A stretch of DNA of 64,000 nt, from assembly GCA_035945995.1 (NCBI GenBank), contig DASYZR010000153.1, positions 22,330-86,329 on the forward strand. The letters run 5' to 3'. The translations under genes and the position numbers were made by a program. The notes under the pieces are model-generated. The model had not been told where the DNA came from. It made no database searches and saw nothing but the letters and a program-made list of their open reading frames with translations. The stretch comes from a bacterium (GTDB lineage Bacteria > Sysuimicrobiota > Sysuimicrobiia > Sysuimicrobiales > Segetimicrobiaceae). Below, piece by piece: positions 21,583 to 42,805 of this stretch; positions within the stretch are counted from its first letter, which is position 1; every line of letters starts with the position of its first letter.

Positions 21583-22478
<896 letters not shown>

Positions 22479-22567
22479 AGACCTAGGACGGTGGTCCCGC
22501 GTCCCGCGGGACAGGGGCAGTCGGGGCCGCCTCTCGCAAGAGACGGCCCCGCGACGCTACGAAGACC

Positions 22568-23692: not shown

Positions 23693-23833
23693 CCCCCACC
23701 CCCTCCGCGGTCGGGCGCGTGACCCCTGCTTGGGGGCGCCCGTCGCTACGTGCCCGCGGCCCTTCTCAGAAGAAGGTGGCAAATCCTTCCCGCCAGAACA
23801 GCCGCGTGGAGACGCATCTGCGGAGGTGGCGCG

Positions 23834-24502: not shown

Positions 24503-25794
24503 AACGCGGCGCCGTTGACCGGCTCCACCCGGGGGACCGGCGCGAACGTCCGGGGCGACAGCCCCTCGAGATCGTGCGCCGGCGCGCGGCCCGCGACGAG
24601 ATCGGCGACGATCCGGGCCGAGCCGCATGCCATCGTCCACCCCAAGTGCCCGTGGCCCGAGTTGAAGAAGAGGTTGCGGTGGCGGCCCGCTCCGAGCACC
24701 GGCGGACCGCCCGGCGTCATCGGCCGCAGGCAGGCGCGGTACTCCCCGCGCGTGTAGTCGGCGGCGTCGGGAAACAGATCGCGCGCCAGCCGTTGGATGT
24801 TCGCAAAGTTCCGCGGGCTCCAGCTCCAGTCGTACCCGGCGAATTCGGCGGTGGACGTCAGCCGCAGCCGGTCGCCCATCCGGGACCACGCCACGAGCCA
24901 GCGTTCGTCGACACCCGGGACGCTGGGCGCAAGCCCGCCCGGCCGCAGGGGAAAGGTCGATGAGTACCCCTTGGCGGGATAGATCGGCAGCCGTGCGCCC
25001 ACCGTGCGGGCGATGATGGGACTCGAGACGCCGAGCGCCAGCACGTAGGCATCGGCGGCCAACACGCCGCGGTCGGTCAGGACACCGGAGATGCGATCCC
25101 CGCCGGCGCGCAACGCTCGCACGCGGGTGCCGAGCCGGAACGTCACGCCGAGCTTCTCGCGGCACACGCGTCCCAACTCTTCCGTGAACAACCGGGAGTC
25201 GCCGCTCGAGTCGGTCAGGTCGAGCACGGCGCCGGCGATCTTGTGCCTGACCGGCTCGAAGACCGGATCGAGCTTCGCCACCGCGTCGGGGTCGAGCACT
25301 TCCTGCCGCTGCCCGTGCTCGGCCAGAAGGCGCATCTTCTTCACGCCGGCCTCGAGTTCGGCCGCGTCGCGGCAGAGGTACAAGGCCCCGCGGGCAATCG
25401 CGTGGTAGGCAATCCCCTCCCGGCGCACGAGCTCGGCCATCACCGCCTGGCTGTACTGGCACAGCCTCAGCTTCACGAGCGTGTTGCGGCGCGCGCGGCC
25501 GGCCGTGCATTCGCGGAGGAAGCGCAGGCCCCAGGAGTACAGCCGGGGATCGGGCCGCAGCCTCACGCGGATCGCGGTTTGCTGTCCGAGAAGCGACCGG
25601 AGCAGCATGGCCGGCGCCCCCGGAGACGCCCAGGCAAATGCGTGGCCCGCCGCGACGATGCCCGCGTTGCCGCCGCTGGCTTCCTGCCCGACCCCGTCCC
25701 GCTGCTCGACCAGGACCACCTCGCATCCGTCCTGCGCGAGGTAGTACGCCGTCGCCACGCCGATGACGCCGCCGCCGAGGACAAGGACCTTCAT
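24499..25794 (-). CDS. dadA: FAD-dependent D-amino acid dehydrogenase (DadA-like)
   Basis: MKVLVLGGGVIGVATAYYLA (FAD dinucleotide-binding fold)...PIYPAKGYS...NSGHGHLGWTMACGSA. ATGA overlap with the upstream CoxL gene. The 738-aa track ORF is a spurious extension. Confidence 0.8.
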   Translation of the reverse strand: MKVLVLGGGVIGVATAYYLAQDGCEVVLVEQRDGVGQEASGGNAGIVAAGHAFAWASPGAPAMLLRSLLGQQTAIRVRLRPDPRLYSWGLRFLRECTAGRARRNTLVKLRLCQYSQAVMAELVRREGIAYHAIARGALYLCRDAAELEAGVKKMRLLAEHGQRQEVLDPDAVAKLDPVFEPVRHKIAGAVLDLTDSSGDSRLFTEELGRVCREKLGVTFRLGTRVRALRAGGDRISGVLTDRGVLAADAYVLALGVSSPIIARTVGARLPIYPAKGYSSTFPLRPGGLAPSVPGVDERWLVAWSRMGDRLRLTSTAEFAGYDWSWSPRNFANIQRLARDLFPDAADYTRGEYRACLRPMTPGGPPVLGAGRHRNLFFNSGHGHLGWTMACGSARIVADLVAGRAPAHDLEGLSPRTFAPVPRVEPVNGAAF

Positions 25795-28118
25795 TCGCGC
25801 CCGCGGACGGGCCGCTCGCCGCGCGCCAGCGCCTGCGCCACCCGCTCCGGCGTGATCGGGAGCTCGGTAATGCGCACCCCCACCGCGTCTTCGATCGCGT
25901 TCGCAATCGCCGCGGCCGGCGGCCCGATCGGCGGCTCGCCGATGCCCCGCGCCCCAAACGGCCCCCGGCCGTCTCCCGATTCGAGCACGATCGGTTCGAC
26001 GTCCGGGACGTCGAGCGAGGTCGGGATCAGGTAGCCGGCAAAATTGGTGGACAGGTTGACGCCCCGATCGACCACGACTTCCTCCATCAGCGCGTACCCC
26101 AGCCCCATCACGGCGCCGCCTTGAATCTGCCCCTCGACGCTTTGGGGGTTGACGGCGCGACCGACGTCGTGGCACGCCGCGTGCCGGACGACGGCGACGG
26201 CGCCGGTCTCCGTGTCCACCTCCACGTCGACCGCGTGGGCCCCGAAGGTGAAGTCGGGGAAGATCCGGCCGCCGCCGCGCTCGAGATCGACCGGGTCGCC
26301 GGCCGGGGCGTGATACACGCCCAGGTGGCTCCGTGCGACCCCGCGGCGCGCGCATTCCCGCACCACCTCGGCCAGCGGGACGCGCCGGCCGCCGGACTCG
26401 GCGGCGCCGCCGTCGCGAAGGTCGACCCGGTCGGACGGCGTCTCGAGCATCTGCGCGGCCACCGGCAGGATCTGCCTCCGCAGCTCGGTGGCCGCTTGGA
26501 GCACGGCGTTGCCCGACATGTAGAGCTGGCGCGTGGCCGTCGTCGTGCCGGCGAGCGGCGTCAGCGCGCTGTCGCCGACGTGCACGGACACCGCGTCGGG
26601 CTCGACCCCGAGGATCTCGGCGGCGATCTGGCACAGGGAGGACGCCTGACCGCCGCCGACGTCGGGGACGCCCGTCCGGACGACCACGCTCCCGTCCATC
26701 TCGAACCCGACCCACGCGCTCGCCCAGTCGTGCAGCCAGACGATGCGGCCGTAGGGCTGGATGTTGCAGGCCAGGCCGCGGCCGGCGCGATGGGATGGCG
26801 TTCGAGGGGCGCGGCGCGGACCGAGCGCCGCCCAGGCGCGCTGCGCCGCCTCCGCCACCGCGACGTGCGTGTCCAGTTCCTGGCCGATCGGAAGCCGGTC
26901 GCCCTTGCGGAGCGCGTTCTGCACGCGCACCGCGACGGGGTCCAGTCCCAGGCGCCGCGCCAGCCGGTCCATCTGCGACTCGTAGCCGAACACCATCTGC
27001 ATGGCCCCGAATCCCCGCATCGCGCTCGTCGGCGGGTTGTTCGTGTATGCGGCGCGCGCGTCCACCGCGACGTTGGGCACCCGATAGGGCCCGGCGGCGG
27101 TGACGGTCGCGTACATCAGCACGAGGGCGCTGAGGTAGGCGTAGGCGCCCGAGTCGGCCAGGAGATCCACCGCCTGCGCCAGGAGCGTGCCGTCGCGCGA
27201 CGCCCCGGTGCGATAGTGCAGCACAAACGGATGACGCTTGGGACGGGCGAGGAGCGACTCCTGACGCGACCAGACCATCCGCACCGGCCGGCCCGTCCGG
27301 CGGGCGAGGAGACCGAGGAACACCTCGACGGTCACGTCTTCCTTACCGCCGAAGCCGCCCCCCACGTACGTGCCGATCACCCGCACTTTGTTGTGGGGAA
27401 GGGCGAGCGCCTCCGCGACGTCTCGAAAGTGCTCGATCACCTGGGTGGAGACCCGAATCACCAGTACACCGTCGGTGTCCACCCACGCGACCCCCGCCTC
27501 GGGCTCGAGGTAGGCGTGGTCGATGAACTGGCAGCGGTAGGTATGCTCCACCACCACGTCGGCCTCGGCGAGCGCCCGCTCGACGTCTCCGCATCCCGCG
27601 TGCCAGCGCGCCAGGAGGTTGCCCTCCTCGTGCACCTGGGGCGCGCCGGGACGCAGCGCGTCGGCCGAGTCGAACACGCCCGGCTGGACCTCGTAGTCGA
27701 CGTCGATCGCTTCGAGCGCCCGCCGCACCGTCTCGGGCGTCTCGGCCGCCACCAGGGCCACCGGCTCTCCCTGATATCGCACGACCCGCTCCGCGAGCAC
27801 CTGCAGCCGGGCCCGCAGGGCGCCGACCTCGCTGGTCTGACCGGGCACGTCCGTCCACAGGGTATTACGCGGCACGTCGTGGGCGGTCAGCACCGCGGCG
27901 ACGCCGGGCAGCGCGGCCGCGCGCGAGGTGTCGAGGCGGCGGATCCGGGCGGACGGGTACACGGAGCGCAGCACGCCGCCGTGCAGCATGCCCGGCATCT
28001 GCCAGTCGGCGGCGTACAGCGTCCGCGCCTGGACTTTGTCCCGGGCGTCGTGCCGCGCAATGGTCCGGCCGACGACGCGGAGGTGTGCGGCCGGCAGGAC
28101 CGCCGGGCCCTCAGCCAC
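25791..28118 (-). CDS. XDH/CoxL-family molybdopterin-binding large subunit, copy 2
   Basis: 775 aa; VGRTIARHDARDKVQARTLYAADW; GGGFGGKED; AMRGFGAMQ; GIGEPPIGPP. Confidence 0.85.
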   Translation of the reverse strand: MAEGPAVLPAAHLRVVGRTIARHDARDKVQARTLYAADWQMPGMLHGGVLRSVYPSARIRRLDTSRAAALPGVAAVLTAHDVPRNTLWTDVPGQTSEVGALRARLQVLAERVVRYQGEPVALVAAETPETVRRALEAIDVDYEVQPGVFDSADALRPGAPQVHEEGNLLARWHAGCGDVERALAEADVVVEHTYRCQFIDHAYLEPEAGVAWVDTDGVLVIRVSTQVIEHFRDVAEALALPHNKVRVIGTYVGGGFGGKEDVTVEVFLGLLARRTGRPVRMVWSRQESLLARPKRHPFVLHYRTGASRDGTLLAQAVDLLADSGAYAYLSALVLMYATVTAAGPYRVPNVAVDARAAYTNNPPTSAMRGFGAMQMVFGYESQMDRLARRLGLDPVAVRVQNALRKGDRLPIGQELDTHVAVAEAAQRAWAALGPRRAPRTPSHRAGRGLACNIQPYGRIVWLHDWASAWVGFEMDGSVVVRTGVPDVGGGQASSLCQIAAEILGVEPDAVSVHVGDSALTPLAGTTTATRQLYMSGNAVLQAATELRRQILPVAAQMLETPSDRVDLRDGGAAESGGRRVPLAEVVRECARRGVARSHLGVYHAPAGDPVDLERGGGRIFPDFTFGAHAVDVEVDTETGAVAVVRHAACHDVGRAVNPQSVEGQIQGGAVMGLGYALMEEVVVDRGVNLSTNFAGYLIPTSLDVPDVEPIVLESGDGRGPFGARGIGEPPIGPPAAAIANAIEDAVGVRITELPITPERVAQALARGERPVRGRE

Positions 28119-28593
28119 GGGACGCCGCCATCGTCCCGGCGGCGGCTTCGATCGCGTCCACGATCTTCGCGTAGCCCGTGCACCGGCACAGGTTGCCGGC
28201 GATGGCCCGGCGGATCTCCTGGCGCGTCGGCCGCCGGTGTTCCCGGAGGAACGCGTCCGCGGTCAGGATGATCCCCGGCGTGCAAAATCCGCACTGCGCC
28301 GCGCCGTGGGCGACGAACGCCTCCTGCAGCGGGTGCAGGCGCCCGGCGGGCGCGAGCCCGCGCAGCGTCGTCACGCTCTTGTCCGCGACGCGGGCGGCGA
28401 GCACCAGGCAGCTGCTCACCGGCTCCCCGTCCAGCAGCACGGTGCACGTGCCGCAGACGCCCTCGCCGCACCCTTCCTTGACTTCCATGGCGCCGAGATC
28501 GTCGCGCAGCACCTCGAGCAGCGTCTGGTGCGCGAGGACGCGCGCCTCGCGCCGGTCTCCATTCAGGGTGAAGGCGATCCTCAGCTCGGTCAC
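28111..28593 (-). CDS. [2Fe-2S]-binding small subunit (CoxS/XdhC-type)
   Basis: 160 aa; CGEGVCGTCTV (ferredoxin-like cluster) and CGFCTPG...CRCTGY (second cluster). GTGA overlap with the FAD-subunit stop. Confidence 0.85.
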   Translation of the reverse strand: MTELRIAFTLNGDRREARVLAHQTLLEVLRDDLGAMEVKEGCGEGVCGTCTVLLDGEPVSSCLVLAARVADKSVTTLRGLAPAGRLHPLQEAFVAHGAAQCGFCTPGIILTADAFLREHRRPTRQEIRRAIAGNLCRCTGYAKIVDAIEAAAGTMAASRG

Positions 28594-29471
28594 GGTCCCG
28601 CTCCCTTCGCCGCCTGCGCTGCCGCCCGCACGAGAGCCCGCCGGGCCATCACGCGGGTCAGGTGCCGGCGGTAGTCGGCCGACGCGTGCACGTCGCTCTC
28701 CGGCTCGATCTCCAGTGGATGATCCGTCACGGCGCGCCGGAACGTCTCCTCCGACGAGTCGGCCCCGGCCAGGGCGCGCTCCGCCGCGAGCAACCGCACC
28801 GGCGCCGGCCCGGCCCCGGCGATCGCCACGCGGGCGCGGGCCGTCTGTCCGCGGGCATCCAGCTCGACGACGGCGACCGCCGCGACAATGGCGAAGTCGC
28901 CGGCGCGCCGGGTGAATTCCTCCACGGCGTAGCCGGTCCGGCCGGCCGGCACGGGCAGCCGCACGGCGACCAGCAGCTCGTCGGCGCGAAGCGCGGTGGT
29001 GAGCAGGCCGGTGAAGAACTCCGCCGCCGGGATCTCGCGCCCGCCGCCGGGACCCCGGACGACGGCGATCCCGTCGAGCGCGCGCACGACCGCGGGCCAC
29101 TCCGCCGCGGGGTCGGCATGCGCCAGGCTGCCGCCGATCGTCCCCATCGTGCGCACCCGCACGTTGCCGATGAGCGCCGCCGCCTCCTGGAGCAGCGGGC
29201 ACTCCGCCAGCGGTCCGTCGCCGCGCTCGAGCGCCCGGTGGCGGACGAGCGCGCCGATCTCGAGCGTGTCGCCGTCCCGGCGCACGGCCCGCAACTCGTC
29301 GAGGCCGTAAATGTCCACGACCGCCCGCGGGCGCGCCAGGCGCAGCGTGAGCAGCGGCACGAGACTCTGTCCGCCGGCCAGCACCTTCGCCTCCTCGCCG
29401 AGGGATCCGAGGAGCGACAGCGCCTCGGCCAGCGTCGCCGGAACATGGTAGTCGAACGGCGCCGCCGGCAT
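28590..29471 (-). CDS. FAD-binding medium subunit (CoxM-type, molybdopterin dehydrogenase FAD-binding domain)
   Basis: 293 aa; MPAAPFDYHVPATLAEALSLL...KVLAGGQSLVPLL...TIGGSLAHADPAAE. Confidence 0.8.
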   Translation of the reverse strand: MPAAPFDYHVPATLAEALSLLGSLGEEAKVLAGGQSLVPLLTLRLARPRAVVDIYGLDELRAVRRDGDTLEIGALVRHRALERGDGPLAECPLLQEAAALIGNVRVRTMGTIGGSLAHADPAAEWPAVVRALDGIAVVRGPGGGREIPAAEFFTGLLTTALRADELLVAVRLPVPAGRTGYAVEEFTRRAGDFAIVAAVAVVELDARGQTARARVAIAGAGPAPVRLLAAERALAGADSSEETFRRAVTDHPLEIEPESDVHASADYRRHLTRVMARRALVRAAAQAAKGAGP

Positions 29472-29473
29472 CC

Positions 29474-30310
29474 CTAGACGTCCCAGCCGCCGTCGACGAC
29501 CAGATCGTGGCCGGTGATCTGCCGGCTTTCGTCCGAGGCGAGGAATACGACGGTGTGCGCGACGTCCGATTCGTCGGAGAACCGGCGCAGGGCCATCTCC
29601 CGGACGTACTCGTCGAAGACCGCCTCGGGCGTCGTGTCCCGCACCCGGGCCTTCTCCCCGATGATGGTCCGCATGCGCTCGCCCTCGACGACGCCGGGAC
29701 AGATCGCATTCACGTTCACGTTGTAGGGACCGGCCTCGAGGGCCAGCGTGCGGGTCAGTCCGCGGACCGCCCACTTCGACGCCGAATAGGCGGCGCGATT
29801 GCGATAGCCGCGCAGCCCCGAGGTCCCGGCGATGTTGACGATCTTGCCGTACCGCTGCTCCATCATCGTCGGGACGACGGCCCGGCAGCAGAGAAAGACG
29901 CCGCGAAGATTCACGGCCAGTACCTGGTCCCACTCCTCGGGCGCGATCTGGTACAGGGGCGTCTCAATCGGACCGATCACACCGGCCGCGTTCACCAGGA
30001 TGTCGATCCGGCCGAACTCAGCGCGCGCCCGGCGGGCGAGCGCCGACACCTGATCCTCCCGCGTCACGTCGGCGGGCACCGCGAGGTGGCGGTGGCCTGC
30101 CCCGCCTGCCTCGCCTGCCCCGCGCGAGACGGGGCGTGAGCCGGGGCCCCCTTCCAGATGCTCGAGCCGCTCGACCAGCGCCGCGAGCGGGCCGGCCTCG
30201 CGCGCGGCCGCGACGACATGCGCCCCCTCGCCGGCGAGCGCGGCGCAGATCGCGTCGCCCATACCCTTGGCGGCACCGGTGACGATCGCTACCCGATCCG
30301 CAAGCCTCAC
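29474..30310 (-). CDS. Short-chain dehydrogenase/reductase (SDR) with an approximately 28-aa Gly/Ala/Pro-rich insertion
   Basis: VAIVTGAAKGMG...NAAG...YSASKWAV (YxxxK). An insertion LEHLEGGPGSRPVSRGAGEAGGAGHRHL follows the second beta strand. Confidence 0.75.
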   Translation of the reverse strand: MRLADRVAIVTGAAKGMGDAICAALAGEGAHVVAAAREAGPLAALVERLEHLEGGPGSRPVSRGAGEAGGAGHRHLAVPADVTREDQVSALARRARAEFGRIDILVNAAGVIGPIETPLYQIAPEEWDQVLAVNLRGVFLCCRAVVPTMMEQRYGKIVNIAGTSGLRGYRNRAAYSASKWAVRGLTRTLALEAGPYNVNVNAICPGVVEGERMRTIIGEKARVRDTTPEAVFDEYVREMALRRFSDESDVAHTVVFLASDESRQITGHDLVVDGGWDV

Positions 30311-31953
30311 CTGGTCTCCCCCCCATCGCCCGCCGTCACGTATCCGTTCCGCAGGTCCGCCTCGCGCAGCGCCGCCGGGCGTTCCTCCGGCGGTCCGTAC
30401 CCGCCCCCGCCGGAGCTCTCCAGCACGATCAGGTCGCCCCGGTGGAGGTCACGGTTCTCCTTTCCGCCGATCGCGATCTGCCCGCCCGCGCGGTCGCAGG
30501 CCACCCGGAACGGCGCTCCGTCCGCGCCGCCGAACACCCCCCACGGCGGCACGCGCATCCGCTCGACCATCGTGGACAGCTCCGCGTGCTCGCAGAGCAC
30601 CCGGTACGATCGGCGCAGCCCAAGCCCGCCCCGATGCCGGCCGCGGCCGCCGCTGCCGGGGCGCAACTCGCAGCACTCGACCCGCAGCGGGTACTCGCTC
30701 TCGATCACCTCGACCGGCGTATTCATCACGTTGCTCATGTGCACCCGCACGGCGTTGGTGCCGTCCCGGTCCCGGCCCGCGCCCTCGCCGCCGCCGTGCA
30801 CCTCGTACAGCACGAACGGACGGCCGTCGTCGTGGCGCCCGGCGAGCATCACCAGGCCCGAGGTCCCCGGACCGCCGGCGACGATCCGGTTCGGGAGCAC
30901 CGGGGCGAGCGCGCGGAGGAGCGCGTCGACGACGCGCTGCGAGGTCTCGTGGTTGCCGCCGACCCGGGGTGCCTCCGGCCCGGGGTTGAGCACGCACCCC
31001 TCGGGGATGCGCAGGCGAATGGGCCGGTAGCAGCCGGCGTTGGCGGGAATCTCGGGGCCCAAGAGCGCCCGGACGGCGTAGAACACGGCCGACGCGGTCA
31101 CGAACCGGGTGGCGTTGAGGGGCCCCCGCGTCTCCGGCGCGGTGCCCTCAAAGTCGACGTCGAGCGCATCACCGGCCGGACGGACGCGGGCGGTGATGCG
31201 GACCGGCCCCTCCCCGGCGCCGTCGTCGTCGAGCCAATCCTCGCCCGCGTACTCGCCGGCCGGCAGAGCGGCGATCGCCGCCCGCATCAGCCCTTCCGAC
31301 TCGTCGAGAAACCGGCCCAGGCACGCCCGGACCGTCTCCGCGCCGAAGCGGTCGAACATCTCCCCGAGGCGCGCCGCGGCCACCGCGTTCGCGGCGTACT
31401 GGGCGAGGATGTCCCCCCGCCGCTCCTCCCGCCCGCGGACGTTCGCCAGCACCATCTCGAGCATCGTCTCGTTCGGCTCTCCGCGCTCGAACAGCGGCAC
31501 CGGGGGAATGCACAGACCCTCCGCGTAGCGGTCGCGGGCCGCCGCCACATAGCTGCCCCGGCGCGCGCCGCCGACATCCGGCCAGTGGGCCAGGTTGATG
31601 GCAAACGCGACAAGGTCTCCCCGGTGGAACACTGGGGTGATCGCTTTGACGTCCGGCAGGTGGTTGCCGCCGACCTCGGGATCGTTGGTGAAGTACACGT
31701 CGCCCGCACGGAGCGCGGAAGCGGGCACGCGCCGCAGAAACTCCTCGACGGTGAACGCCATCACCCCGAGGTGGATCGGGATGTCGCGGCCCTGGGCCAC
31801 GAGCCGCCCGCGGGCATCCGTGAGCGCGCAGGAGAGATCGCCGGCCTCCTTGAGGACCGGGGATCGGGCAGAGCGCATCAGAATGACGCGCATCTCCTCG
31901 GCGACCGAGAAGATCGCGTGGCGCACGACCTCGAGCGTGACCGGGTCGATCAT
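30307..31953 (-). CDS. hyuB: Hydantoinase B / oxoprolinase family protein (HyuB-type), pair 2
   Basis: 548 aa; MIDPVTLEVVRHAIFSVAEEM; DVYFTNDPEVGGNHLPD; SSGGGGYGPP. Confidence 0.85.
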   Translation of the reverse strand: MIDPVTLEVVRHAIFSVAEEMRVILMRSARSPVLKEAGDLSCALTDARGRLVAQGRDIPIHLGVMAFTVEEFLRRVPASALRAGDVYFTNDPEVGGNHLPDVKAITPVFHRGDLVAFAINLAHWPDVGGARRGSYVAAARDRYAEGLCIPPVPLFERGEPNETMLEMVLANVRGREERRGDILAQYAANAVAAARLGEMFDRFGAETVRACLGRFLDESEGLMRAAIAALPAGEYAGEDWLDDDGAGEGPVRITARVRPAGDALDVDFEGTAPETRGPLNATRFVTASAVFYAVRALLGPEIPANAGCYRPIRLRIPEGCVLNPGPEAPRVGGNHETSQRVVDALLRALAPVLPNRIVAGGPGTSGLVMLAGRHDDGRPFVLYEVHGGGEGAGRDRDGTNAVRVHMSNVMNTPVEVIESEYPLRVECCELRPGSGGRGRHRGGLGLRRSYRVLCEHAELSTMVERMRVPPWGVFGGADGAPFRVACDRAGGQIAIGGKENRDLHRGDLIVLESSGGGGYGPPEERPAALREADLRNGYVTAGDGGETR

Positions 31954-32014
31954 CGGAGCGCCTCGCCTCCCACCGCCCTGCGATCGGGAGCCGCCGGGAT
32001 CCGCGGCGCGGCCG

Positions 32015-34081
32015 TCACGCCGCCTCGATCCACAGCAGACCGGCGCGGTCGCCGCGCAGGACCTGCCCCGGATCGACCACGACGGTCGACCACGCGTCCT
32101 CGATGACCGCCGGGCCGCGCACCTCGCTGCCGGGACCGAGATCACCGCGAAAGCATCGCGTGGCCGGTGTCCATCCGCGCCCATAGAAAAAGGCCCGCCG
32201 CTCGGCGCGGATCCCGCCGCGGCCATCCCCCGCCCCGCCTCGCGCCCCCTCTCGCGCGGGGCCCCTGGTCAGGGGCAGGCAGGCGGGGACGGCCGGGAGC
32301 CCGCCGATCGCCGACGGGATGATGGCGCTCGCGCGGAGGTTCACACACTCCACGGGGTCGCCGGTCACGTACCCGAACCGAAGCCGGTGACGCTCCGCAA
32401 ATCGCCGTGTGATCCCGGGGCCGTCCACCCCGGGCACCGTCGTGACCTCGAGTTCGTAGTTCTGACCGCGATACCGGAGGTCCATGGAGCGCTGCACGAT
32501 TGCCCCGCCGGCCTCGAGCCCTTCGTCCGCGAACCGGCCCAGTAGTTCGGCCTCCATGTCCCGAAAGGGCGCCTCCCAGCTGTCGGCCCGGCTCGAGGCC
32601 AGGTCGAAGCGGACGGTCCGCACGGCGTCGTAGCGCATGTCGGCCGTCAGGCACCCGTACGCCGAGAAGCCGCTGGAGTACGGCGGGACGAGCGCACGCG
32701 GCATCCCCGCACGCTCGATCAGCCGGCCGGCGTGGATCGGACCGGCGCCGCCGTATGCGATGAGCGTGAGCCCGCGCGGATCGACGCCCCGTTCAATGGA
32801 CACGACGCGCAGCACCCGGTTCATCGCCGCGTTGGCGATCTCGAGAATCCCGGCCGCCGCGTCCGGGACGGATAGGGCGAACCGCGTGGCCAGCGGTTCC
32901 AGCGCCCGCCACGCCCGGTCCGGGTCGAGGCGCAGCCCTCCCACGCCGCCGTCGGTGTTGAGATAGCCGAGCACAACGTACGCATCCGTGACGGTCGGCT
33001 CTTCTCCTCCCCGGGCGTAGCACGCCGGACCCGGAGTGGCCCCGGCGCTGCGCGGTCCGACCCGCAGCGCCCCGCCCGGGTCCACCCACGCGACGGATCC
33101 GCCCCCCGCCCCGATGCTCTCGACGGCGAGCGACCGGAACCGGACCGGCCGGCCGGAAACGCGGCGTTCCGACAGCGTCTCCACCTGTCCGCCCTGAATC
33201 AGGCAGACGTCGGTGGACGTGCCGCCCATGTCCAGGGCGACCGCGTCGGTCACGCCGGCGTAGGTCCCGGCCGCCCGGGCCGCCGCGACGCCGCCCGCCG
33301 GACCGGACAGCAGCATCGCGAGCGGGGCGCGCCGCACCTGGCCGGGCGCCGCCATCCCGCCGTTGGACTGCATCAGACGCAGCGTCCCGCGCACGCGCTG
33401 CCCGGCGAGGCCCGCCGTCAGATCGGCCAGGAACCGGTCCACGAGCGGCATCAGCTGCGCGTTCACGCATGCCGTGTGCGTACGCTCGTATTCACGAAAC
33501 TCGGGGTTCACCTCCGACGAGAGGCAGACGTGCGGCACCATCGATCGCAGCAGCGCGCCGGCCCGCTGCTCGTGCGCCGGGTTCGCGTAGGCGTGAAGGA
33601 AACTCACCGCGACGGCTTCGACACCGGCCTCGCGAAGGGCGCCGGCGAGGCCGGTCACGTCGGCCTCGTCGAGCGGCACGAGCACCTGTCCCCGATGGTC
33701 GACCCGCTCGGTCACCTCGAACCGCAGCACCCGGGGCACCGCGGACGGCGCCCGTCCGGGCAGGTCCAGCCGGTAGAGGTGGTCGCGCTGCTGCCTGCCG
33801 ATCTCGAGGACGTCGCGGAAGCCGCGCGTTGTCACGAGGGCGGTTCGGGCGCCCCGGCCCTCCAGGACGGCGTTGGTCACCAGGGTCGTGCCGTAGGTCA
33901 GACGCGCGACGTCGTCGCCGTCCCGGCCGACCGCGCGCAGGCCCTCGCGCAGTGCGTGGGACGGATTGGCGGTGGTCGGCACCTTGCAGAAGCGCAGGGG
34001 GCCGCCGTCCGCGGGCTGCGCCACGAGGTCGGTGAAGGTCCCGCCGACGTCGACCCCGATGCTCACGCCGTCCGACGCCAC
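32015..34081 (-). CDS. hyuA: Hydantoinase A / oxoprolinase family protein (HyuA-type), pair 2
   Basis: ...SIGVDVGGTFTDLV...DMGGTSTD...IGAGGGS. The GTG start is placed 4 nt after the upstream solA-like stop; 34066 is the alternative. Confidence 0.8.
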   Translation of the reverse strand: MASDGVSIGVDVGGTFTDLVAQPADGGPLRFCKVPTTANPSHALREGLRAVGRDGDDVARLTYGTTLVTNAVLEGRGARTALVTTRGFRDVLEIGRQQRDHLYRLDLPGRAPSAVPRVLRFEVTERVDHRGQVLVPLDEADVTGLAGALREAGVEAVAVSFLHAYANPAHEQRAGALLRSMVPHVCLSSEVNPEFREYERTHTACVNAQLMPLVDRFLADLTAGLAGQRVRGTLRLMQSNGGMAAPGQVRRAPLAMLLSGPAGGVAAARAAGTYAGVTDAVALDMGGTSTDVCLIQGGQVETLSERRVSGRPVRFRSLAVESIGAGGGSVAWVDPGGALRVGPRSAGATPGPACYARGGEEPTVTDAYVVLGYLNTDGGVGGLRLDPDRAWRALEPLATRFALSVPDAAAGILEIANAAMNRVLRVVSIERGVDPRGLTLIAYGGAGPIHAGRLIERAGMPRALVPPYSSGFSAYGCLTADMRYDAVRTVRFDLASSRADSWEAPFRDMEAELLGRFADEGLEAGGAIVQRSMDLRYRGQNYELEVTTVPGVDGPGITRRFAERHRLRFGYVTGDPVECVNLRASAIIPSAIGGLPAVPACLPLTRGPAREGARGGAGDGRGGIRAERRAFFYGRGWTPATRCFRGDLGPGSEVRGPAVIEDAWSTVVVDPGQVLRGDRAGLLWIEAA

Positions 34082-34086
34082 GGGGG

Positions 34087-35223
34087 CTACGGCGGCGGGA
34101 GCCGGCCGATTGCGAATAGACTCAGATCGAACCGGCTCGTCCCGTCCAGCACCAGGTCGGCCATGATCTCGCCGACGACGCTGCAAAACTTGAACCCGTG
34201 TCCGGAGAACCCCGCGGCGACGCCCACGTTCGGCCGGCCGGGGAGCCGGTCGAGAATGAAGTGCTCGTCCGGGCTGTTGGTGAAGAGACAGGTCTTCATC
34301 GCCATGGTCGGCCCGTCGGCGTCCGGAAAGTAGCGGCGGATCCCTTCCCGCAGGACCGCTTCGTCTTCGGGATGGATCTCGCGGTCCACCGTGCCGGCAT
34401 CGGTGTGCCCGCCGCGATGGTGATACTTCCCGATCTTGAACCCGGGGACGCTGTAGATGGGAAACCCGTAGAACCGTCCCTCGGGACCCTCCAAGTTGAA
34501 GACGGGAAACGCGCCGAGACGGAAGTACTCGGGTCGCAGCGGTTGGGCCCAGAGCAACACCTGCCGCTCCGGCACGGCCGCCCGGGCCAGGGCCGGCACG
34601 AGGCCCGCCGCCCACGGTCCCGCGGTGATCACGAGCCGATCCGCGGCATACTCACCGCGCGGCGTGTGGACACGCACCCCGTCGCCGCCGCCCTCCCACC
34701 GCAACGCCGGCTCCCGGGCGCGCACTTCCGCGCCGAGCGTCTGCGCCGCCGCCACGTGGGCGACGATCGTGCGCTCCGACAGGACGAACCCGCCGTCCGG
34801 TTGGTAGACGGCGATCATGTCGCTCGCGAGACGATACCCGGGATGGCGCCGGTGTAGCTCCGCGGCATTCCACCTTTCGTGGGGCAGGTGATGACGCTCA
34901 CACGAGAGGAGCGATCCCGTGACCGTCCGGCAGCCGTCCGGGCCGGCGTCGATGCTGCCTGTCACCACCAGCAGGCGCTCGCCGGCGAGATGTTCCAACT
35001 CCCGCCACAGCTCATACGCGCGGCGGAGCAACGGGACGTATGATGGGTGCTCCCAATACGCCAGGCGGATGATGCGGTTCGTCCCGTGCGACGAGCCGCG
35101 ATCGTGGGGAATGTCAAACTGCTCCAGGCCCAGCGTCCGGAGACCGCGTCGCGCCAAATGGTGGACGGCGGCGCTGCCCATGCCGCCCACACCGATCACG
35201 ATGGCGTCGTAGTGGCGCGTCAT
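34087..35223 (-). CDS. Monomeric sarcosine oxidase / N-methyl-L-tryptophan oxidase (SolA/MTOX) family FAD-dependent oxidoreductase
   Basis: MTRHYDAIVIGVGGMGSAAVHHLARRG...HGTNRIIRLAY...NSPDEHFILD...GFSGHGFKFCSVVGE (conserved flavinylation Cys region). Confidence 0.8.
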   Translation of the reverse strand: MTRHYDAIVIGVGGMGSAAVHHLARRGLRTLGLEQFDIPHDRGSSHGTNRIIRLAYWEHPSYVPLLRRAYELWRELEHLAGERLLVVTGSIDAGPDGCRTVTGSLLSCERHHLPHERWNAAELHRRHPGYRLASDMIAVYQPDGGFVLSERTIVAHVAAAQTLGAEVRAREPALRWEGGGDGVRVHTPRGEYAADRLVITAGPWAAGLVPALARAAVPERQVLLWAQPLRPEYFRLGAFPVFNLEGPEGRFYGFPIYSVPGFKIGKYHHRGGHTDAGTVDREIHPEDEAVLREGIRRYFPDADGPTMAMKTCLFTNSPDEHFILDRLPGRPNVGVAAGFSGHGFKFCSVVGEIMADLVLDGTSRFDLSLFAIGRLPPP

Positions 35224-35248: not shown

Positions 35249-36070
35249 CTAGACCCCGCTGAACGCGCTGAACCCGCCGTCCACCGGGATGACCGTCCCG
35301 TTCACGAACCGGCTGCCCGGGCCGCACAGCCAGATCACGGTTCCGATGAGGTCGCCGGGCTCGCCAAACCGGCCCGCGGGGGTGTGCTCGATGATCCGCC
35401 CGCCGCGCGGAGTGAGGCTCCCATCCTCGTTGGTGAGCAACCGGCGGTTTTGCTCCCCGATGAAGAACCCGGGCGCGACGGCGTTGACACGCAGGCCCGC
35501 GCCGTGCTTGCGCGAGAGCTCGACGGCGAGCCAGCGCGTCAAATTCTCGACCGCCGCCTTCGCCGCCGAATAGGCCGGCACGCGCGTGAGGACGCGTTGG
35601 GACGCCATCGACGACACGTTCACGATGCTGCCCCGCCCGGCCGCGGCCATCGCGGCGCCGAACGTCTGAATCGGCAGCAGCGTTCCGAGGAAATTCAGGT
35701 CCATCGCGGCCCGCCATCCCTCCACCGGCAGGTCGAGCACCGAGCCGCCGTTTGCGAGGGTGGCCTGCGGCAGGTTGCCGCCCGCCGCGTTGATCAGGAT
35801 GTCGACGCGTCCCCATCGCCCGACCACGTCGTCCCGGGACCGCGCCAGCGTCGCCGGGTCGAGCACGTCGGCGGCCAGCGGCATCGCCTCGCCGCCGGAG
35901 CGCTCGATCTGCGCGACGACCTCCCGCGCGCGCTCGAGCCGGCGGCCGAGGACGCCCACCCGGGCGCCGGCCGCGGACAGGCCGCGAGCCATCGCCGACC
36001 CCAGGACGCCGCTTCCGCCGGTGACCACCGCCACCGTGCCGCGCAGGTCGAAGAGCTGCTCGGGTGTCAT
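35249..36070 (-). CDS. Short-chain dehydrogenase/reductase (mannonate / altronate-oxidoreductase-like SDR)
   Basis: VAVVTGGSGVLG...NAAGG...YSAAKAAV. Confidence 0.7.
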   Translation of the reverse strand: MTPEQLFDLRGTVAVVTGGSGVLGSAMARGLSAAGARVGVLGRRLERAREVVAQIERSGGEAMPLAADVLDPATLARSRDDVVGRWGRVDILINAAGGNLPQATLANGGSVLDLPVEGWRAAMDLNFLGTLLPIQTFGAAMAAAGRGSIVNVSSMASQRVLTRVPAYSAAKAAVENLTRWLAVELSRKHGAGLRVNAVAPGFFIGEQNRRLLTNEDGSLTPRGGRIIEHTPAGRFGEPGDLIGTVIWLCGPGSRFVNGTVIPVDGGFSAFSGV

Positions 36071-37590
36071 CCGCCCGCCTCCGGCCCGTCCTCGTCAGGG
36101 GACGCCGCCCCGGCGAACGCCGAAAGGTGGCGGATGAAATGGCGCTCCACCGTGGCGTCGTAAGCCTCCGGGTTGGCCCGTAGAACGGCGCGCAGCCGCT
36201 CGCCGTAGGCCGCCAGCGCCGAGCCGAACGTGACGTGCAGCATCTCGCGCGCGTCGAAGTCGTCGAGCAGCGACGCGAGGTCCGCGTCCGCCACCGCCCG
36301 CGGCGCGGGCGCCCGCTCGGGACGCGCCGACACGTGGTAGCTGGCCCGGTCGTGCTCGTAGCGCTCGTGCGCCAGCGCGTAGATGGCGCGAAACAACTCC
36401 GGATCCAGTGGCGCGATCGTGCGCAGCGCTTCGAGGTAACTCGTCCCGGCCGTCTTGATGTGCGCGAGCGTCCCGGCCTGCCGGGCAAACGCGCCGTACA
36501 CGCTCAATTTGTCCGAACCGGAATGCAGGCTCAACTTGTAGGAGCCGAGGCGGCGCGCGATCGCCGCGTGCACCGCGGCGTCGGCCTCGAACGCGGCGGG
36601 ATCGCCGATATAGTCCACGCCCTTCTCGAAGCGCCCGACGAAGCGCGGCGCGAGGCTCACCCACCGGACGTCCAACCGGCGCAGCTCGGTCGCGACGTAG
36701 GCGTGCTGCACCGGCGTCGTCGGCGTATCGGTTTCATCGACCGAGATCTCCACCTCGGCGTCACCGCCGCGCGCGCGGAGATGACGGTAGAGGGCCGCGA
36801 CGTGGGCCACCGCGCGCCCGTACTTGAGGGCGGCCCGCGCGATCCCCTCGTCGTCGAAGACGATGACCCGCCCGTCCGCCTCGAGCGTCCGGCCGCGGTA
36901 GCGCGCTTCGAGCCCCGCGCGGGAATCCTCGAGCGCGTTCCATGGAAGCGCGTCGAGGGCCGCGGCCACGGCGGCGGCCGGCCGCGCATCGGCGGCCGGA
37001 TCCACGTACGCGCCCGGATCGAACGTGAAGAACGTGTACCCCGCGGCGAGACACGCGTCGACGTCCGCCGTCGTCTTCAGGTGATCCGCATCGGCGCCGA
37101 AGCCTTCGCGCCACCCTTCTGCGAAAACACCCCAGGCGGCGTCCGTGAGCACCTGCACCGGATTGCGTCCGGTCCGCTCCATCTCGCGGATCGACTGCTG
37201 GGCAAAGATCGGGGCGAGCGCCGCTTCGCCGTGACGGTGGCCGCCGCCGGCCGCGCGCAGCGCCCGGATGTGGCCGGGCGTCGCCAGCCCGAGTCTGTCG
37301 CCGAAGCCGAAGGAGCGCGCGAGCCCCAGCCGGCGCGGCGCGAGCCACGGCAGCACACCCTGCAGCACCGCAAGGTTGTGGACGCCGAGCGGCCCGACCC
37401 GAAGCCACCGGCCGTCCGCGGCGGAGGTCTCCCCCTCGAGATCCCGCAACGCCGCCGGTACCTCCGGGGCCAGCGCCGCCAGCCGGTCCCCCGCCGGCGT
37501 GCGCGCCAGCCCCACCTCCGCCTCGCCGATCTGGACCACCGACCGGGGCCGGACATCGAACCCGGGAACCGACGACAACCGTGCCATCAT
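36067..37590 (-). CDS. uxaE: Tagaturonate / fructuronate epimerase UxaE-family protein
   Basis: 507 aa. Size and a run of conserved segments (GYTFFTFDPGAYVD...HIKTAGTSYLEALR...) recalled as matching the UxaE family. Confidence 0.55.
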   Translation of the reverse strand: MMARLSSVPGFDVRPRSVVQIGEAEVGLARTPAGDRLAALAPEVPAALRDLEGETSAADGRWLRVGPLGVHNLAVLQGVLPWLAPRRLGLARSFGFGDRLGLATPGHIRALRAAGGGHRHGEAALAPIFAQQSIREMERTGRNPVQVLTDAAWGVFAEGWREGFGADADHLKTTADVDACLAAGYTFFTFDPGAYVDPAADARPAAAVAAALDALPWNALEDSRAGLEARYRGRTLEADGRVIVFDDEGIARAALKYGRAVAHVAALYRHLRARGGDAEVEISVDETDTPTTPVQHAYVATELRRLDVRWVSLAPRFVGRFEKGVDYIGDPAAFEADAAVHAAIARRLGSYKLSLHSGSDKLSVYGAFARQAGTLAHIKTAGTSYLEALRTIAPLDPELFRAIYALAHERYEHDRASYHVSARPERAPAPRAVADADLASLLDDFDAREMLHVTFGSALAAYGERLRAVLRANPEAYDATVERHFIRHLSAFAGAASPDEDGPEAGG

Positions 37591-37603
37591 CTGGGCGCGC
37601 TCA

Positions 37604-38971
37604 TCAGAAGTTTCCGGGGGCCGGCCGGCCCCGGACGGCCTGTCCCCCGTAGGGGAGCACCGGGTCGAGCGGCGGGCGAAGCGTCCCGTCCTCCGCGAAC
37701 ACGAGGGCGGCCGGCGCCGCGTCCGCGACGGGGCCGGCGTGTGGCAGCAGGTGGGGCACGAGGGACTCCGAAACGGCGACCTCGCGGAGCGCGAGCGTGT
37801 TGCGAATGTACACGAGGCGCGTCTCTCCGCCGTCGATCCGCGGCGCGGTGAGCACCGCGGCGTCCAGGACGTCGCGGTCGCTCGCCAGCACCATCGGCAG
37901 GCGCACCGAGTCGATGACCGTGGACGTGAGCGCGTTCATATACGTCGCGGGCAGGTCGATCTTCTCGAGCACCCGCTGCGGGATGAGGTCCGCGAGGCCC
38001 AGGCCGTTGGCGTTGCCCTGCGTCTCGGCGGTGAGGTCCAGCACCGCGATCTTCCGGATCACGGGACCGCCGGAGGCGAACGGCGTGGGATAGCGGCCGG
38101 TGATGTTCGGGTCCATCCCGTCGCCGCTGATGTTCTTGCCGATCTCCTGCACGACGAGCACGTCGGCCTCTGTCACGGGCAGGCGCGCCATGAGACTCCT
38201 CGCGCGGTCCAGCAGCGCGGGCTCACGCTCGAGGAACGCTTCGGGGGGAACGACGGCCAGCTGCACCGGCACGTCGTAGGCGTCTTCGATCGTCGCGACG
38301 CCGAACAGGAGCGGCGCACGCCGCGCCACGATGCCGTAGGCCTCGACCAGGCGGTCGGCGAACCCGCCGAAGCCCGGGGCGTGCATCGACTGCGCGCCCC
38401 GCTGCTTGCCGATCCCGATCACGGCCATCTTGACGAGGCCGCTCTCGATCACGCCGCGAAAGGCGGTATGCGGCTTGACGCGCCCGATCGCGACGGCGGC
38501 GCCGGCCCGATGCGCCTCACGGTCCCAGTACACGCCCGACCCGTCGGCCAGCCGGCCGAGCTCGACCACGTCCATCGACGACACGACCGGCGCGCCCACC
38601 GCCGCCTCCGTGACGCCGAGGCCGGCGAGCACCTCCCGCTGGCCCTCGGCCGTCGCGCCGCCGTGGCTGCCCATCGCGGGCACGATGAACGGCCGGGCGC
38701 CGTGCCGGCGCAGCGCCTCCACCACCGCCTTTGTTATCCGGGGCAGCTCGGCGACGCCGCGGCTGCCGGCCGCCACCGCGACGGGGCCGCGCGGAATCCG
38801 CCGCACGATGTCGGGGGCCGCGATCTGGCGGTGAATCTCCGCTTCGACGTCGCAGCGGCCCGGCGTCGGGAACTGCTGACGTACGCGAACCAGGCGGGGC
38901 AGCGGGGCCGTCGCCGGCGCGCGAATGCCCTCGACCGCGACCGCCCCGGCGCGAGTGCCGTCCGTGCCCAT
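37604..38971 (-). CDS. larA: LarA-family nickel-pincer (NPN) cofactor-dependent hydroxyacid racemase / epimerase homolog
   Basis: 455 aa (DUF2088 / LarA_N); conserved GRVKPHTAF segment (the KPH Lys-Pro-His typical of LarA cofactor tethering / catalysis); TGATG overlap with the upstream isomerase gene. The genomic neighbourhood holds larBCE. Confidence 0.7.
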   Translation of the reverse strand: MGTDGTRAGAVAVEGIRAPATAPLPRLVRVRQQFPTPGRCDVEAEIHRQIAAPDIVRRIPRGPVAVAAGSRGVAELPRITKAVVEALRRHGARPFIVPAMGSHGGATAEGQREVLAGLGVTEAAVGAPVVSSMDVVELGRLADGSGVYWDREAHRAGAAVAIGRVKPHTAFRGVIESGLVKMAVIGIGKQRGAQSMHAPGFGGFADRLVEAYGIVARRAPLLFGVATIEDAYDVPVQLAVVPPEAFLEREPALLDRARSLMARLPVTEADVLVVQEIGKNISGDGMDPNITGRYPTPFASGGPVIRKIAVLDLTAETQGNANGLGLADLIPQRVLEKIDLPATYMNALTSTVIDSVRLPMVLASDRDVLDAAVLTAPRIDGGETRLVYIRNTLALREVAVSESLVPHLLPHAGPVADAAPAALVFAEDGTLRPPLDPVLPYGGQAVRGRPAPGNF

Positions 38972-39768
38972 CACCCCTTTCGCGTCACCCACGCGTGGGC
39001 CGGATCCTCGCTGGCCATCAGGTGCCGTCCCTCGCCGGCCAGCGCCCACAGATAGTAGAGACGGTACCCGGGCGCCGCCACCACGGGATGATACCCGAAG
39101 GGAATGACGACCGTGTCCCCGTCCTCCACCACGAACGTGGAATCGACGTGCCGCTCCGGCGAGTAGAGGCGTTGGAAGCCGAAGCCGTCTTTGGGTTTGA
39201 CGCGGTAATGGTACAGTTCCTGGAACACGACCTCGCGCGGCGGGTCGTGACGATCGTGCTTGTGCGGCGGATAACTCGACCAGGCCCCCGGCTCGTTGAA
39301 CGTTTCCCCGGCCACGAGGCGCTGCGCGGGCTTGGACTCGTCGAGGATCGTGTGCACGGTCCGGCGCCACGCGCCTTCGCCGCGCACGGCCACCGTGACC
39401 TCGGACGGCCGGATGACGTAGGCTTCCCCGCCCTCGGGGGCGGGCGCGCGGAACACGGCGATCTCGGCCGGCCCGCCGGCGGTGATCCGGTAGGCGGCGC
39501 CCGGCGGCGCGTACACCGAGGTCGCCACCCCGTCGAACACGTCGCTCCGCCCGCCCAGGTCGGTCCAGGTCTCCATGCCCTTGACGGCGATCGAGCACCG
39601 CCCGCCGAGGATGACGAGCAGCGATTCCTTGCCCGGCGAGACCATGTCCACCGATCGGCCGGGCGCCGGCCGGACGAGCGCGAGTTCGAGTCCGTCCGAG
39701 TCGGAGTTCGCCGGATTGACGATCTCCGAGACGCCGTCCGGCGCGCCGTGCTTGAAGAAGACCTTCAT
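38971..39768 (-). CDS. KduI/IolB-family bicupin isomerase (5-keto-4-deoxyuronate or 5-deoxyglucuronate isomerase-like)
   Basis: 265 aa, MKVFFKHGAPDG...; bicupin size; GGAGGTG RBS 8 nt upstream. Confidence 0.55.
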   Translation of the reverse strand: MKVFFKHGAPDGVSEIVNPANSDSDGLELALVRPAPGRSVDMVSPGKESLLVILGGRCSIAVKGMETWTDLGGRSDVFDGVATSVYAPPGAAYRITAGGPAEIAVFRAPAPEGGEAYVIRPSEVTVAVRGEGAWRRTVHTILDESKPAQRLVAGETFNEPGAWSSYPPHKHDRHDPPREVVFQELYHYRVKPKDGFGFQRLYSPERHVDSTFVVEDGDTVVIPFGYHPVVAAPGYRLYYLWALAGEGRHLMASEDPAHAWVTRKG

Positions 39769-39808
39769 GACGTTTGCACCTCCGAGGTGAGGTTCCGGCC
39801 CGGCGGCG

Positions 39809-42800: not shown

Positions 42801-42805
42801 GCGGC

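Follow-up and report, generated by a model that had tools for sequence, protein, structure and literature searches.

A conserved gene module pairing an ATP-dependent HyuAB-type amidohydrolase with a short-chain dehydrogenase and a molybdenum hydroxylase

We analyzed 64,000 nucleotides of a bacterial genome from the family Segetimicrobiaceae (Sysuimicrobiota; contig DASYZR010000153.1 of assembly GCA_035945995.1, positions 22,330 to 86,329), referred to here as the window. Eight tightly packed genes on its minus strand encode a SolA-like oxidase, the hydantoinase-type subunits HyuA and HyuB, a short-chain dehydrogenase/reductase (SDR), the three subunits of a xanthine dehydrogenase (XDH)-family molybdenum (Mo) hydroxylase (CoxM, CoxS and CoxL), and a DadA-type dehydrogenase. 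The six genes from hyuA to coxL form a module that is spread over several, mostly uncultured lineages; on balance, it probably serves the catabolism of a small N-heterocycle or cyclic amide and is not the canonical creatinine route. This reading draws on the conserved operonic association of a Hyd-branch amidohydrolase with an SDR and an XDH-family hydroxylase, with the catalytic residues intact in all of them. SolA is a lineage-specific neighbor outside the conserved core, and DadA is an accessory gene limited to some relatives. In the order of transcription, the eight genes are:

34087-35223, minus strand: solA-like FAD amine oxidase of the monomeric sarcosine oxidase (MSOX)/N-methyltryptophan oxidase (MTOX) family (Pfam DAO, E=2e-46; NCBIfam NF008425)
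32015-34081, minus strand: hyuA, ATP-binding alpha subunit, 688 aa (Pfam Hydant_A_N, Hydantoinase_A and Hydant_A_C, E=5e-88)
30307-31953, minus strand: hyuB, metal-binding beta subunit, 548 aa (Pfam Hydantoinase_B, E=1e-186)
29474-30310, minus strand: classical SDR, 278 aa (Pfam adh_short_C2, E=7e-58)
28590-29471, minus strand: coxM-type FAD subunit of the Mo hydroxylase (Pfam FAD_binding_5, E=3e-45, and CO_deh_flav_C)
28111-28593, minus strand: coxS-type subunit with two [2Fe-2S] clusters (Pfam Fer2 and Fer2_2; cysteine motifs seen in the sequence)
25791-28118, minus strand: coxL-type molybdopterin subunit, 775 aa (Pfam Ald_Xan_dh_C, MoCoBD_1 and MoCoBD_2)
24499-25794, minus strand: dadA-type D-amino-acid dehydrogenase, 431 aa (NCBIfam NF001933, 402 bits, cut-off 383)

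Distribution and gene order of the module

The genes are closely spaced throughout: solA-hyuA +5 nt, hyuA-hyuB +61, hyuB-SDR -4, SDR-coxM +2, coxM-coxS -4, coxS-coxL -8 and coxL-dadA -4. SRR25660873 and SRR25660887, two independent Logan assemblies, each encode a HyuB that is 100% identical and share the eight-gene order, with products of 378, 688, 548, 278, 293, 160, 775 and 431 aa from solA to dadA; the arrangement is therefore not an assembly artifact. The window has a G+C content of about 72%, third-position GC follows the frames of all eight genes, and the minus strand carries every gene from 48.2 kb down to 24.5 kb. An initial annotation of this DNA had described a contiguous, coupled solA/MTOX-like, hyuA and hyuB run followed downstream by an SDR, CoxM-CoxS-CoxL and DadA, and the Pfam and NCBIfam domains, reading frames and same-strand spacing agree with it. 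No riboswitch or other RNA was matched in Rfam across the whole window, and a promoter and terminator scan gave no signal exceeding the shuffled-sequence level.

A scan for HyuB, with one genome per species, returned 80 loci at 56 to 86% identity, which were analyzed by tblastn of all window proteins and by independent clustering of called open reading frames. These loci come from metagenome-assembled genomes (MAGs) labeled Bacillota or ANGP1 (the window's own lineage), Rokubacteria/Methylomirabilota, Acidoferrum, Deferrimicrobiaceae, Alpha- and Gammaproteobacteria, and Myxococcales. Among loci with room for the comparison, hyuA adjoins hyuB in 61 of 63, and an orthologous SDR gene lies no more than 400 nt downstream of hyuB in 61 of 68; the SDR is the most constant partner of hyuAB. 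Downstream of hyuB, 40 of the 48 loci with 6.5 kb or more of sequence to compare carry a same-strand coxL ortholog. Two arrangements of the Mo-enzyme genes are seen, M-S-L (30 loci) and L-(CoxG)-S-M (9 loci), yet the genes are retained, and the functional partnership has therefore been kept despite rearrangement. Rokubacterial loci (L015, L018, L025, L026, L031 and others) carry a second version of the module in the L-(CoxG)-S-M order, with a coxL 54 to 57% identical to that of the window, and an extra, more distant coxMSL set lies upstream of hyuA in L015, L018, L071 and L077.

The two end genes behave differently. No solA was found in any of the 80 HyuB loci, and dadA occurs in three (L003, L016 and L023). 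A reciprocal scan of solA against metagenome contigs gave another 80 loci, at 63 to 82% identity. None has the orthologous hyuAB; L166 alone has a distant HyuAB, at 36 to 40% identity. No conserved neighbor of solA emerged from these loci, the commonest neighboring family being present in 8 of 80. In the closest solA orthologs (L087 to L089, 81 to 82%), the gene sits in a serA-like/serS/SDR/solA context with a convergent PF02633 gene. The solA-hyuAB adjacency is thus unique to this genome among the loci compared.

Comparison with individual relatives locates the boundary. Synteny with L003, which is the nearest relative and the same locus as L081, spans hyuA to livM at 71 to 88% identity and ends exactly upstream of hyuA, where the window has solA and a sugar-acid operon. 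An M24 hydrolase gene (NF038259, 317 bits) takes the place of solA upstream of hyuA in L001, L003 and L005; in L081, a 313-nt gap follows it. In L007, L008 and L172, the module forms the end of a single long co-directional array that reads livHMGF, DUF1989, SDR, E1-alpha, E1-beta, D-2-hydroxyacid dehydrogenase, hyuA, hyuB, SDR, coxMSL, and orthologs of these accessory genes, at 62 to 83% identity, lie elsewhere in the window. One rokubacterial locus has the module flanked by a Pot-type ABC transporter, a split enzyme dependent on thiamine diphosphate (ThDP), an SDR and a Zn-dependent alcohol dehydrogenase (Zn-ADH). A DNA search of plasmids gave no match, and a protein search of plasmids gave matches of about 54% identity at most, the best cultured match being Tistrella pTM3 (54%). 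In both Tistrella pTM3 and Halomarina, hyuAB is present without the SDR or cox genes.

Enzyme families and predicted chemistry

HyuA and HyuB belong to a superfamily that includes both ATP-dependent cyclic amidohydrolases and carboxylases, and we placed them against characterized enzymes by bit scores, motifs and lengths. HyuA has all the ASKHA ATP motifs (D11-VGGTFTD, D284-MGGT and G347-ATPGP), which correspond to DxGGTxxD, DxGGT and GxxPGP as defined in caprolactamase CapA (PMC8453981). The HyuB residues D39, H98, D101 and H123 align with the Asp-His-Asp-His metal site of CapB (D41, H99, D102 and H124). In caprolactamase, the residues matching these ATP motifs and this metal tetrad are essential by mutagenesis (PMC8453981). 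Scores against solved structures in the PDB run, for HyuA, N-methylhydantoinase 7hk5 385 bits, CapA 349, acetone carboxylase beta 236 and Apc 232, and for HyuB, 7hk5 256, CapB 249, ApcD 134 and AcxA 65. In NCBIfam, the CapA and CapB models score 470 and 282 bits (cut-off 1000) versus 234 and 132 for the Apc models; both proteins fall under every equivalog cut-off, and no N-methylhydantoinase model matched either of them. Published criteria for the Hyd branch are two genes in the order hydA-hydB without a gamma subunit, and a beta subunit that falls about 150 aa short of its acetone carboxylase counterpart (PMC5214803). The order and lengths of hyuA (688 aa) and hyuB (548 aa) fit this description. 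No gamma, alpha-prime or epsilon subunit gene lies beside hyuAB, where the SDR gene overlaps the end of hyuB by 4 nt. Because of the ATP motifs, the metal tetrad, the PDB scores, the lengths and the missing gamma-subunit gene, we predict that HyuAB is a Hyd-branch cyclic amidohydrolase rather than a carboxylase, which upholds the hydrolase type proposed in the initial annotation.

How close is HyuAB to a particular hydrolase? By PDB bit scores, HyuA/B is about equally distant from the solved N-methylhydantoinase and caprolactamase. The N-methylhydantoin amidohydrolase (EC 3.5.2.14) acts in the creatinine deaminase route, in which creatinine is converted via N-methylhydantoin and N-carbamoylsarcosine to sarcosine. 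It is, like hyuAB, an ATP-dependent HyuA/HyuB-type cyclic amidohydrolase, and the solved N-methylhydantoinase 7hk5 is the top match of HyuA and tied for the top with HyuB; the solved enzyme is a 1288-aa fusion protein, in contrast to the two separate genes of the module. The Pseudomonas jessenii caprolactamase CapAB (PDB 6YRA; PMC8453981) has the same two-subunit architecture, ATP motifs and Asp-His-Asp-His site. CapB Tyr136 corresponds to HyuB Tyr135, and the IPIHLG pocket segment is identical in both. The two differ in gene order (B-A in CapAB, A-B in hyuAB) and in the pocket, where HyuB has polar Lys35-Glu36 in place of CapB Asn37-Leu38, as in N-methylhydantoinase, and HyuA/HyuB scores are far below the caprolactamase equivalog cut-off given above.

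The window also holds a second ATP-dependent amidohydrolase pair on the plus strand (1912-5813), in B-A order: hyuB2 (1912-3645) and hyuA2 (3642-5813). HyuB2 is 36% identical to the HyuB of the module, and the pair is nearer caprolactamase than the main hyuAB (333 bits to CapB in the PDB; 397 and 602 bits in NCBIfam, which do not reach the cut-off).

The 4-nt overlap makes the SDR translationally coupled to hyuB. In NCBIfam and the PDB, it matches generic enzymes of the FabG or 3-hydroxybutyrate-dehydrogenase type, in no case reaching a cut-off. CoxMSL is a three-subunit XDH-family set in which the FAD, two [2Fe-2S] and molybdenum cofactor domains are all present. CoxL has a VGGGFGGKED motif and the catalytic Glu in ARGIG-E728-PP near the C terminus, and it lacks the CO dehydrogenase (CODH) active-site loop of form I CoxL (AYRCSFR/AYxCSFR, with the Cu-binding Cys). 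In NCBIfam, its scores are pucD 543 bits, 4-hydroxybenzoyl-CoA reductase (4-HBCR) alpha 534, XdhA 517, glyceraldehyde dehydrogenase 413 and PaoC 337, all sub-cut-off; by class, the purine, nicotinate and 4-HBCR models give 507 to 543 bits, the aldehyde oxidoreductase models 337 to 413, and the CODH models 261 to 313 (cut-offs 950 to 991). The closest PDB matches are 4-HBCR (368 bits) and the split nicotinate dehydrogenase (330 and 189). By its motifs and scores, CoxL is predicted to be a hydroxylase and not a CO dehydrogenase. A ring hydroxylase over an aldehyde oxidase is only suggested, because all scores are under the equivalog cut-offs. The initial annotation had taken the XDH-family enzyme to point to a hydroxylated N-heterocycle, and the higher scores with purine and nicotinate hydroxylases fit that idea.

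A second Mo-hydroxylase gene lies in a separate plus-strand stretch (9243-15054). There, a PxpA-like LamB/YcsF gene (9243-10025) overlaps the start of an orphan large subunit (10007-12361) with no adjoining FAD or FeS subunit genes, followed, up to 15054, by a luciferase-like oxidoreductase and then CoA-transferase A and B subunits.

Together, these families suggest a pathway that would begin with the XDH-family enzyme adding an oxo group, its oxygen drawn from water, to a ring carbon beside N to give a lactam or lactim. The SDR might then carry out a two-electron oxidation of a ring or side-chain hydroxyl, for example from a hydroxy-lactam to an imide. Finally, HyuA would phosphorylate the amide carbonyl with ATP, and the metal site of HyuB would hydrolyze the activated ring, with an amino or ureido acid as the open-chain product. 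For this step the mechanism of the family is established, and a substrate of this kind is predicted. Enzymes at the ends of the operons (SolA and DadA in the window; M24, ThDP enzymes and 2-hydroxyacid dehydrogenase in relatives) could funnel the open-chain product to central metabolism. SolA and DadA, two DAO-family flavoenzymes at the module ends, plausibly oxidize an N-alkyl or D-amino-acid product; as lineage-specific add-ons, they may act on the product of the module.

Parts of this scheme have precedents. The Eubacterium barkeri nicotinate dehydrogenase is the split enzyme among the closest solved relatives of CoxL. In the nicotinate routes of E. barkeri (nicotinate dehydrogenase and enamidase) and Aspergillus nidulans (hxn), Mo-dependent hydroxylation beside N is followed by redox tailoring and hydrolytic opening of a lactam or imide; the hxn route uses a Mo hydroxylase, an SDR-type dehydrogenase and a cyclic imidase. 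These pathways open the ring without ATP, by enzymes of the amidohydrolase superfamily, and the module differs also in having no accompanying monooxygenase or reductase genes. In the anaerobic indoleacetate (iaa) pathway of Aromatoleum/Azoarcus, a xanthine-oxidase-family Mo enzyme reportedly yields the oxo-heterocycle, the lactam 2-oxoindole (work attributed to Ebenau-Jehle in 2012). The likeness in chemical logic continues with a HyuAB-type gamma-lactamase of the Hyd branch that opens the 2-oxoindole ring (PMC5214803). However, no gene for a CoA ligase or transferase, a B12 mutase or beta-oxidation is attached to the module, and the host lineages and likely substrate differ.

The Alicycliphilus nmpABCDEF cluster for N-methylpyrrolidone degradation is a precedent for the solA-hyuAB pairing. 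According to a table in PMC6987047 that draws on Solis-Gonzalez 2018, a HyuAB-type amidohydrolase (nmpAB) is paired with a flavin amino-acid oxidase (nmpC) that acts on the released N-methyl amino acid. The cluster has neither a Mo hydroxylase nor an SDR core, and in our loci the oxidase partner is not conserved. We found no description of the module in the literature searched (DUF1989, hyuA/hyuB with molybdenum, caprolactamase, N-methylhydantoinase structure, and hydantoinase with the XDH family). The chemical logic of the module is already known; its gene set and distribution appear to be new.

Weighing alternative pathways

Several observations weigh against a catabolic module of this kind. 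Its substrate is predicted only as a class. The order of reactions could be otherwise, and the Mo enzyme and SDR could equally act after ring opening. Eight of the 48 loci with room have no same-strand Mo hydroxylase downstream, and no cultured or characterized carrier of the module was found, Tistrella pTM3 being the best cultured match. The single best solved relative of HyuA is N-methylhydantoinase. Because solA lies 5 nt from hyuA and is very probably co-transcribed with it, solA may genuinely belong to the pathway in this organism, and an N-alkyl-amino-acid product, as with sarcosine, is then conceivable.

It is tempting to go further and propose that the module is an undescribed, widespread aerobic pathway by which soil and groundwater bacteria use a common natural cyclic ureide or lactam. 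Mo-dependent hydroxylation and the SDR would then give an imide or oxo-lactam so stable that its opening needs ATP, and the pair of DUF1989 proteins in the window, without a biotin carboxylase, would represent a new decarbamoylating or urea-releasing step. Candidate rings would be hydantoin- or creatinine-derived, or of the pyrimidine, pterin or imidazolone type. We offer this larger proposal tentatively, as something that may well not hold as a whole.

Among the other explanations, a noncanonical creatinine route, in line with the initial annotation, is one that we regard as unlikely. HyuAB would make N-carbamoylsarcosine, an unrecognized decarbamoylase, perhaps DUF1989, would release sarcosine, and SolA would convert it to glycine. 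The SolA protein itself is compatible with such a role. It passes the MTOX equivalog model NF008425 (480 bits, cut-off 257) and falls under the cut-off of the MSOX subfamily model TIGR01377 (300 bits versus 480), and its best PDB matches are the sarcosine oxidases 7exs and 1zov (E of about 1e-81, 277 bits), compared with E=7e-60 and 206 bits for MTOX 2uzz. The FAD-binding GxGxxG motif is intact at residues 11-17 (G11-S17). C312, within KTCLFTNSPDEHF, aligns with the covalent-FAD Cys of 1zov and 7exs (MSOX Cys315), and H46, R50, R53, H268/H269 and K345 are conserved in alignment with the solved sarcosine oxidases. The MSOX active-site residues His45, Arg49, Arg52, His269 and Lys348 thus all have counterparts, and the covalent-FAD Cys and oxidase residues expected by the initial annotation are there. 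The 5-nt spacing from hyuA and the 385-bit match of HyuA to N-methylhydantoinase are also in favor of the route, and the accessory genes of the relatives (DadA, which also scores 107 bits on the glycine oxidase ThiO model, the D-2-hydroxyacid dehydrogenase and DUF1989) are compatible with glycine, glyoxylate and urea as C2-N products.

The comparative evidence runs the other way. The initial annotation held that the solA-hyuA-hyuB order mirrors the creatinine route, but the linkage is missing in all 80 HyuB loci and, for the orthologous pair, in all 80 solA loci, and solA sits at a synteny breakpoint. A sarcosine-oxidase-family gene adjoins hyuAB in this genome, but the SDR and the Mo hydroxylase, which are the conserved companions of hyuAB, are foreign to the creatinine deaminase route and have no role in it. 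Both of its accessory enzymes are absent: as the initial annotation had observed, neither creatinine deaminase nor N-carbamoylsarcosine amidase is evident, and we found no CodA-type deaminase, isochorismatase-family amidase or creatininase (PF02633) among the confidently called genes of the 64-kb window. Neither creatinine deaminase nor N-carbamoylsarcosine amidase is conserved across the 80 HyuB loci. HyuB is equidistant from N-methylhydantoinase (256 bits) and CapB (249). The apparent "creatinase" upstream of hyuA in the closest relatives is the M24 protein, which is ectoine-hydrolase (DoeA)-like (DoeA 172 versus creatinase 46 bits in the PDB), and the PF02633 gene beside the closest solA orthologs is better described as MftE-like (141 bits, cut-off 172) than as a creatininase (104 bits, cut-off 235), under both cut-offs. 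The enzyme families, the tight coupling and the hydrolase type of the initial annotation stand; the proposed resemblance to the creatinine route is not supported, and the canonical creatinine/N-methylhydantoin pathway is probably not what the module encodes.

Two other candidate links were considered and set aside. The amidohydrolase beside the M24 gene of the relatives is a member of the TRZ/ATZ deaminase family rather than of the CodA type. The class-III aminotransferase upstream of hyuA in L084, which could have connected a lactam to an omega-amino acid, is HemL-like and passes the HemL cut-off.

The reactions could also run in the reverse order, which we judge to be similarly unlikely. HyuAB would open a simple lactam (5-oxoproline-, pyrrolidone- or piperidone-like), releasing an amino or hydroxy acid; next, the SDR and the Mo enzyme would act as an alcohol dehydrogenase/aldehyde oxidoreductase pair, and the ThDP enzymes and DadA would process the 2-oxo acid. 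The top NCBIfam model of CoxM, a glyceraldehyde dehydrogenase beta subunit (261 bits), is consistent with this order, as are the recurrence of ThDP enzymes by the module, either paired as E1 alpha/beta or split into TPP_N and TPP_C genes, and the neighboring binding protein, which resembles the amino-acid binders LivK and LivJ. However, the CoxL scores described above favor hydroxylase over aldehyde oxidoreductase models, all of them sub-cut-off, and the usual enzyme for the aldehyde step is an NAD-dependent aldehyde dehydrogenase.

It is quite improbable that solA is independent, placed by chance between the sugar-acid operon and the hyuAB module with no functional unit that includes it. The absence of a conserved neighbor among its orthologs and the serS-SDR-solA context of the closest ones would fit, as would the complete hexuronate or sugar-acid operon immediately upstream, whose last gene, a D-mannonate oxidoreductase (35249-36070; NF006132, 365 bits, cut-off 281), ends 25 nt before solA. 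However, gaps of 5 and 25 nt are too small for a promoter or terminator of its own, and none was detected by the scan of the window, so solA is expressed with its neighbors; in addition, nmpABC is a precedent for an amine oxidase joined to a HyuAB-type lactamase. Least credible by far is an ATP-dependent, acetone- or acetophenone-carboxylase-like HyuAB acting on a ketone made by the SDR: the superfamily is shared and the adjoining SDR recalls the pairing of 1-phenylethanol dehydrogenase with Apc (PMC5214803), but the missing subunit genes, the SDR overlap in their place, the Hyd-type lengths and the PDB and NCBIfam scores all argue for a hydrolase.

Neighboring genes and implications

Other genes of the window are linked to the conserved module by their position in its relatives:

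23750-24502, plus strand, convergent with dadA: DUF1989 protein, UAAP2-like (PF09347, E=1e-54; TIGR03424, 179 bits, under the cut-off of 285)
18972-23692, minus strand: Liv-type (HAAT) ABC transporter, livKHMGF (Pfam)
18070-18975, minus strand: second DUF1989 protein (PF09347, E=5e-57)
15104-17085, minus strand: ThDP-dependent E1 alpha and beta pair (E1_dh, Transket_pyr/Transketolase_C)
7031-8095, minus strand: D-2-hydroxyacid dehydrogenase (2-Hacid_dh_C)

Across the 80 HyuB loci, DUF1989 genes occur in seven and Liv permeases in nine. The first DUF1989 gene recurs beside the module within this lineage: orthologs at 81 to 86% identity hold the same position in L001, L003 and L005, and an ortholog of the second shares one co-directional array with hyuAB in L172, L007 and L008. 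The binding protein (22568-23692) is LivK-like, with similarity to both LivK and LivJ of E. coli (PDB 1usg, 224 bits). The livKHMGF transporter is syntenic with the module in L001, L003, L005, L007, L008 and L172 and could serve to take up the substrate or product of the module. The E1 alpha and beta proteins are 72% and 83% identical to the L007 genes between DUF1989 and hyuA, and in some relatives their orthologs lie directly upstream of hyuA. The D-2-hydroxyacid dehydrogenase is 62% identical to its L007 counterpart, and its ortholog overlaps the start of hyuA in L007, L008 and L172.

The two DUF1989 genes (urea-amidolyase-associated/carboxyguanidine-deiminase family) flank LivKHMGF, spanning 18070-24502, and neither a urea or guanidine carboxylase nor an allophanate hydrolase was found in the window. 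Between the second DUF1989 gene and E1-alpha lies an F420-dependent LLM-class oxidoreductase (17138-18007, minus strand; TIGR03560, 228 bits, cut-off 231), a position held by an SDR in L007 and L172.

Directly upstream of solA, a complete nickel-pincer-cofactor operon (35249-48247, minus strand) is arranged as larE, larB, larC, sugar ABC transporter, enolase-superfamily dehydratase, KduI, LarA-like isomerase, UxaE and D-mannonate oxidoreductase. The LarA-like protein matches "NPN-dependent isomerase group 22" (NF052515, 500 bits, cut-off 400), and the operon resembles a pathway for hexuronates or sugar acids with an isomerase of the LarA family. Farther upstream (55117-63954, minus strand), G+C falls to 63 to 65% and very large proteins are encoded: 1447 aa with beta-propeller and helix-hairpin-helix domains, 365 aa without a Pfam match, and 1110 aa with Laminin_G_3. 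This region may have been horizontally acquired.

The module bears on how such genes are read in environmental genomes. HyuA/HyuB are routinely auto-annotated as "N-methylhydantoinase" (JGI names), and a form-II-like coxL is often taken as CO-oxidation potential. Both labels are probably wrong for the module in the Rokubacteria/Methylomirabilota, in the window's own deep lineage and in several proteobacterial MAGs. The lesson of this locus is that a gene adjacency that looks suggestive, here solA-hyuAB, may be specific to one lineage, and that the conserved partnership from which more can be learned is found one gene along. If the substrate of the module is found, it would define a new ATP-consuming route for the degradation of organic N-heterocycles in soil.

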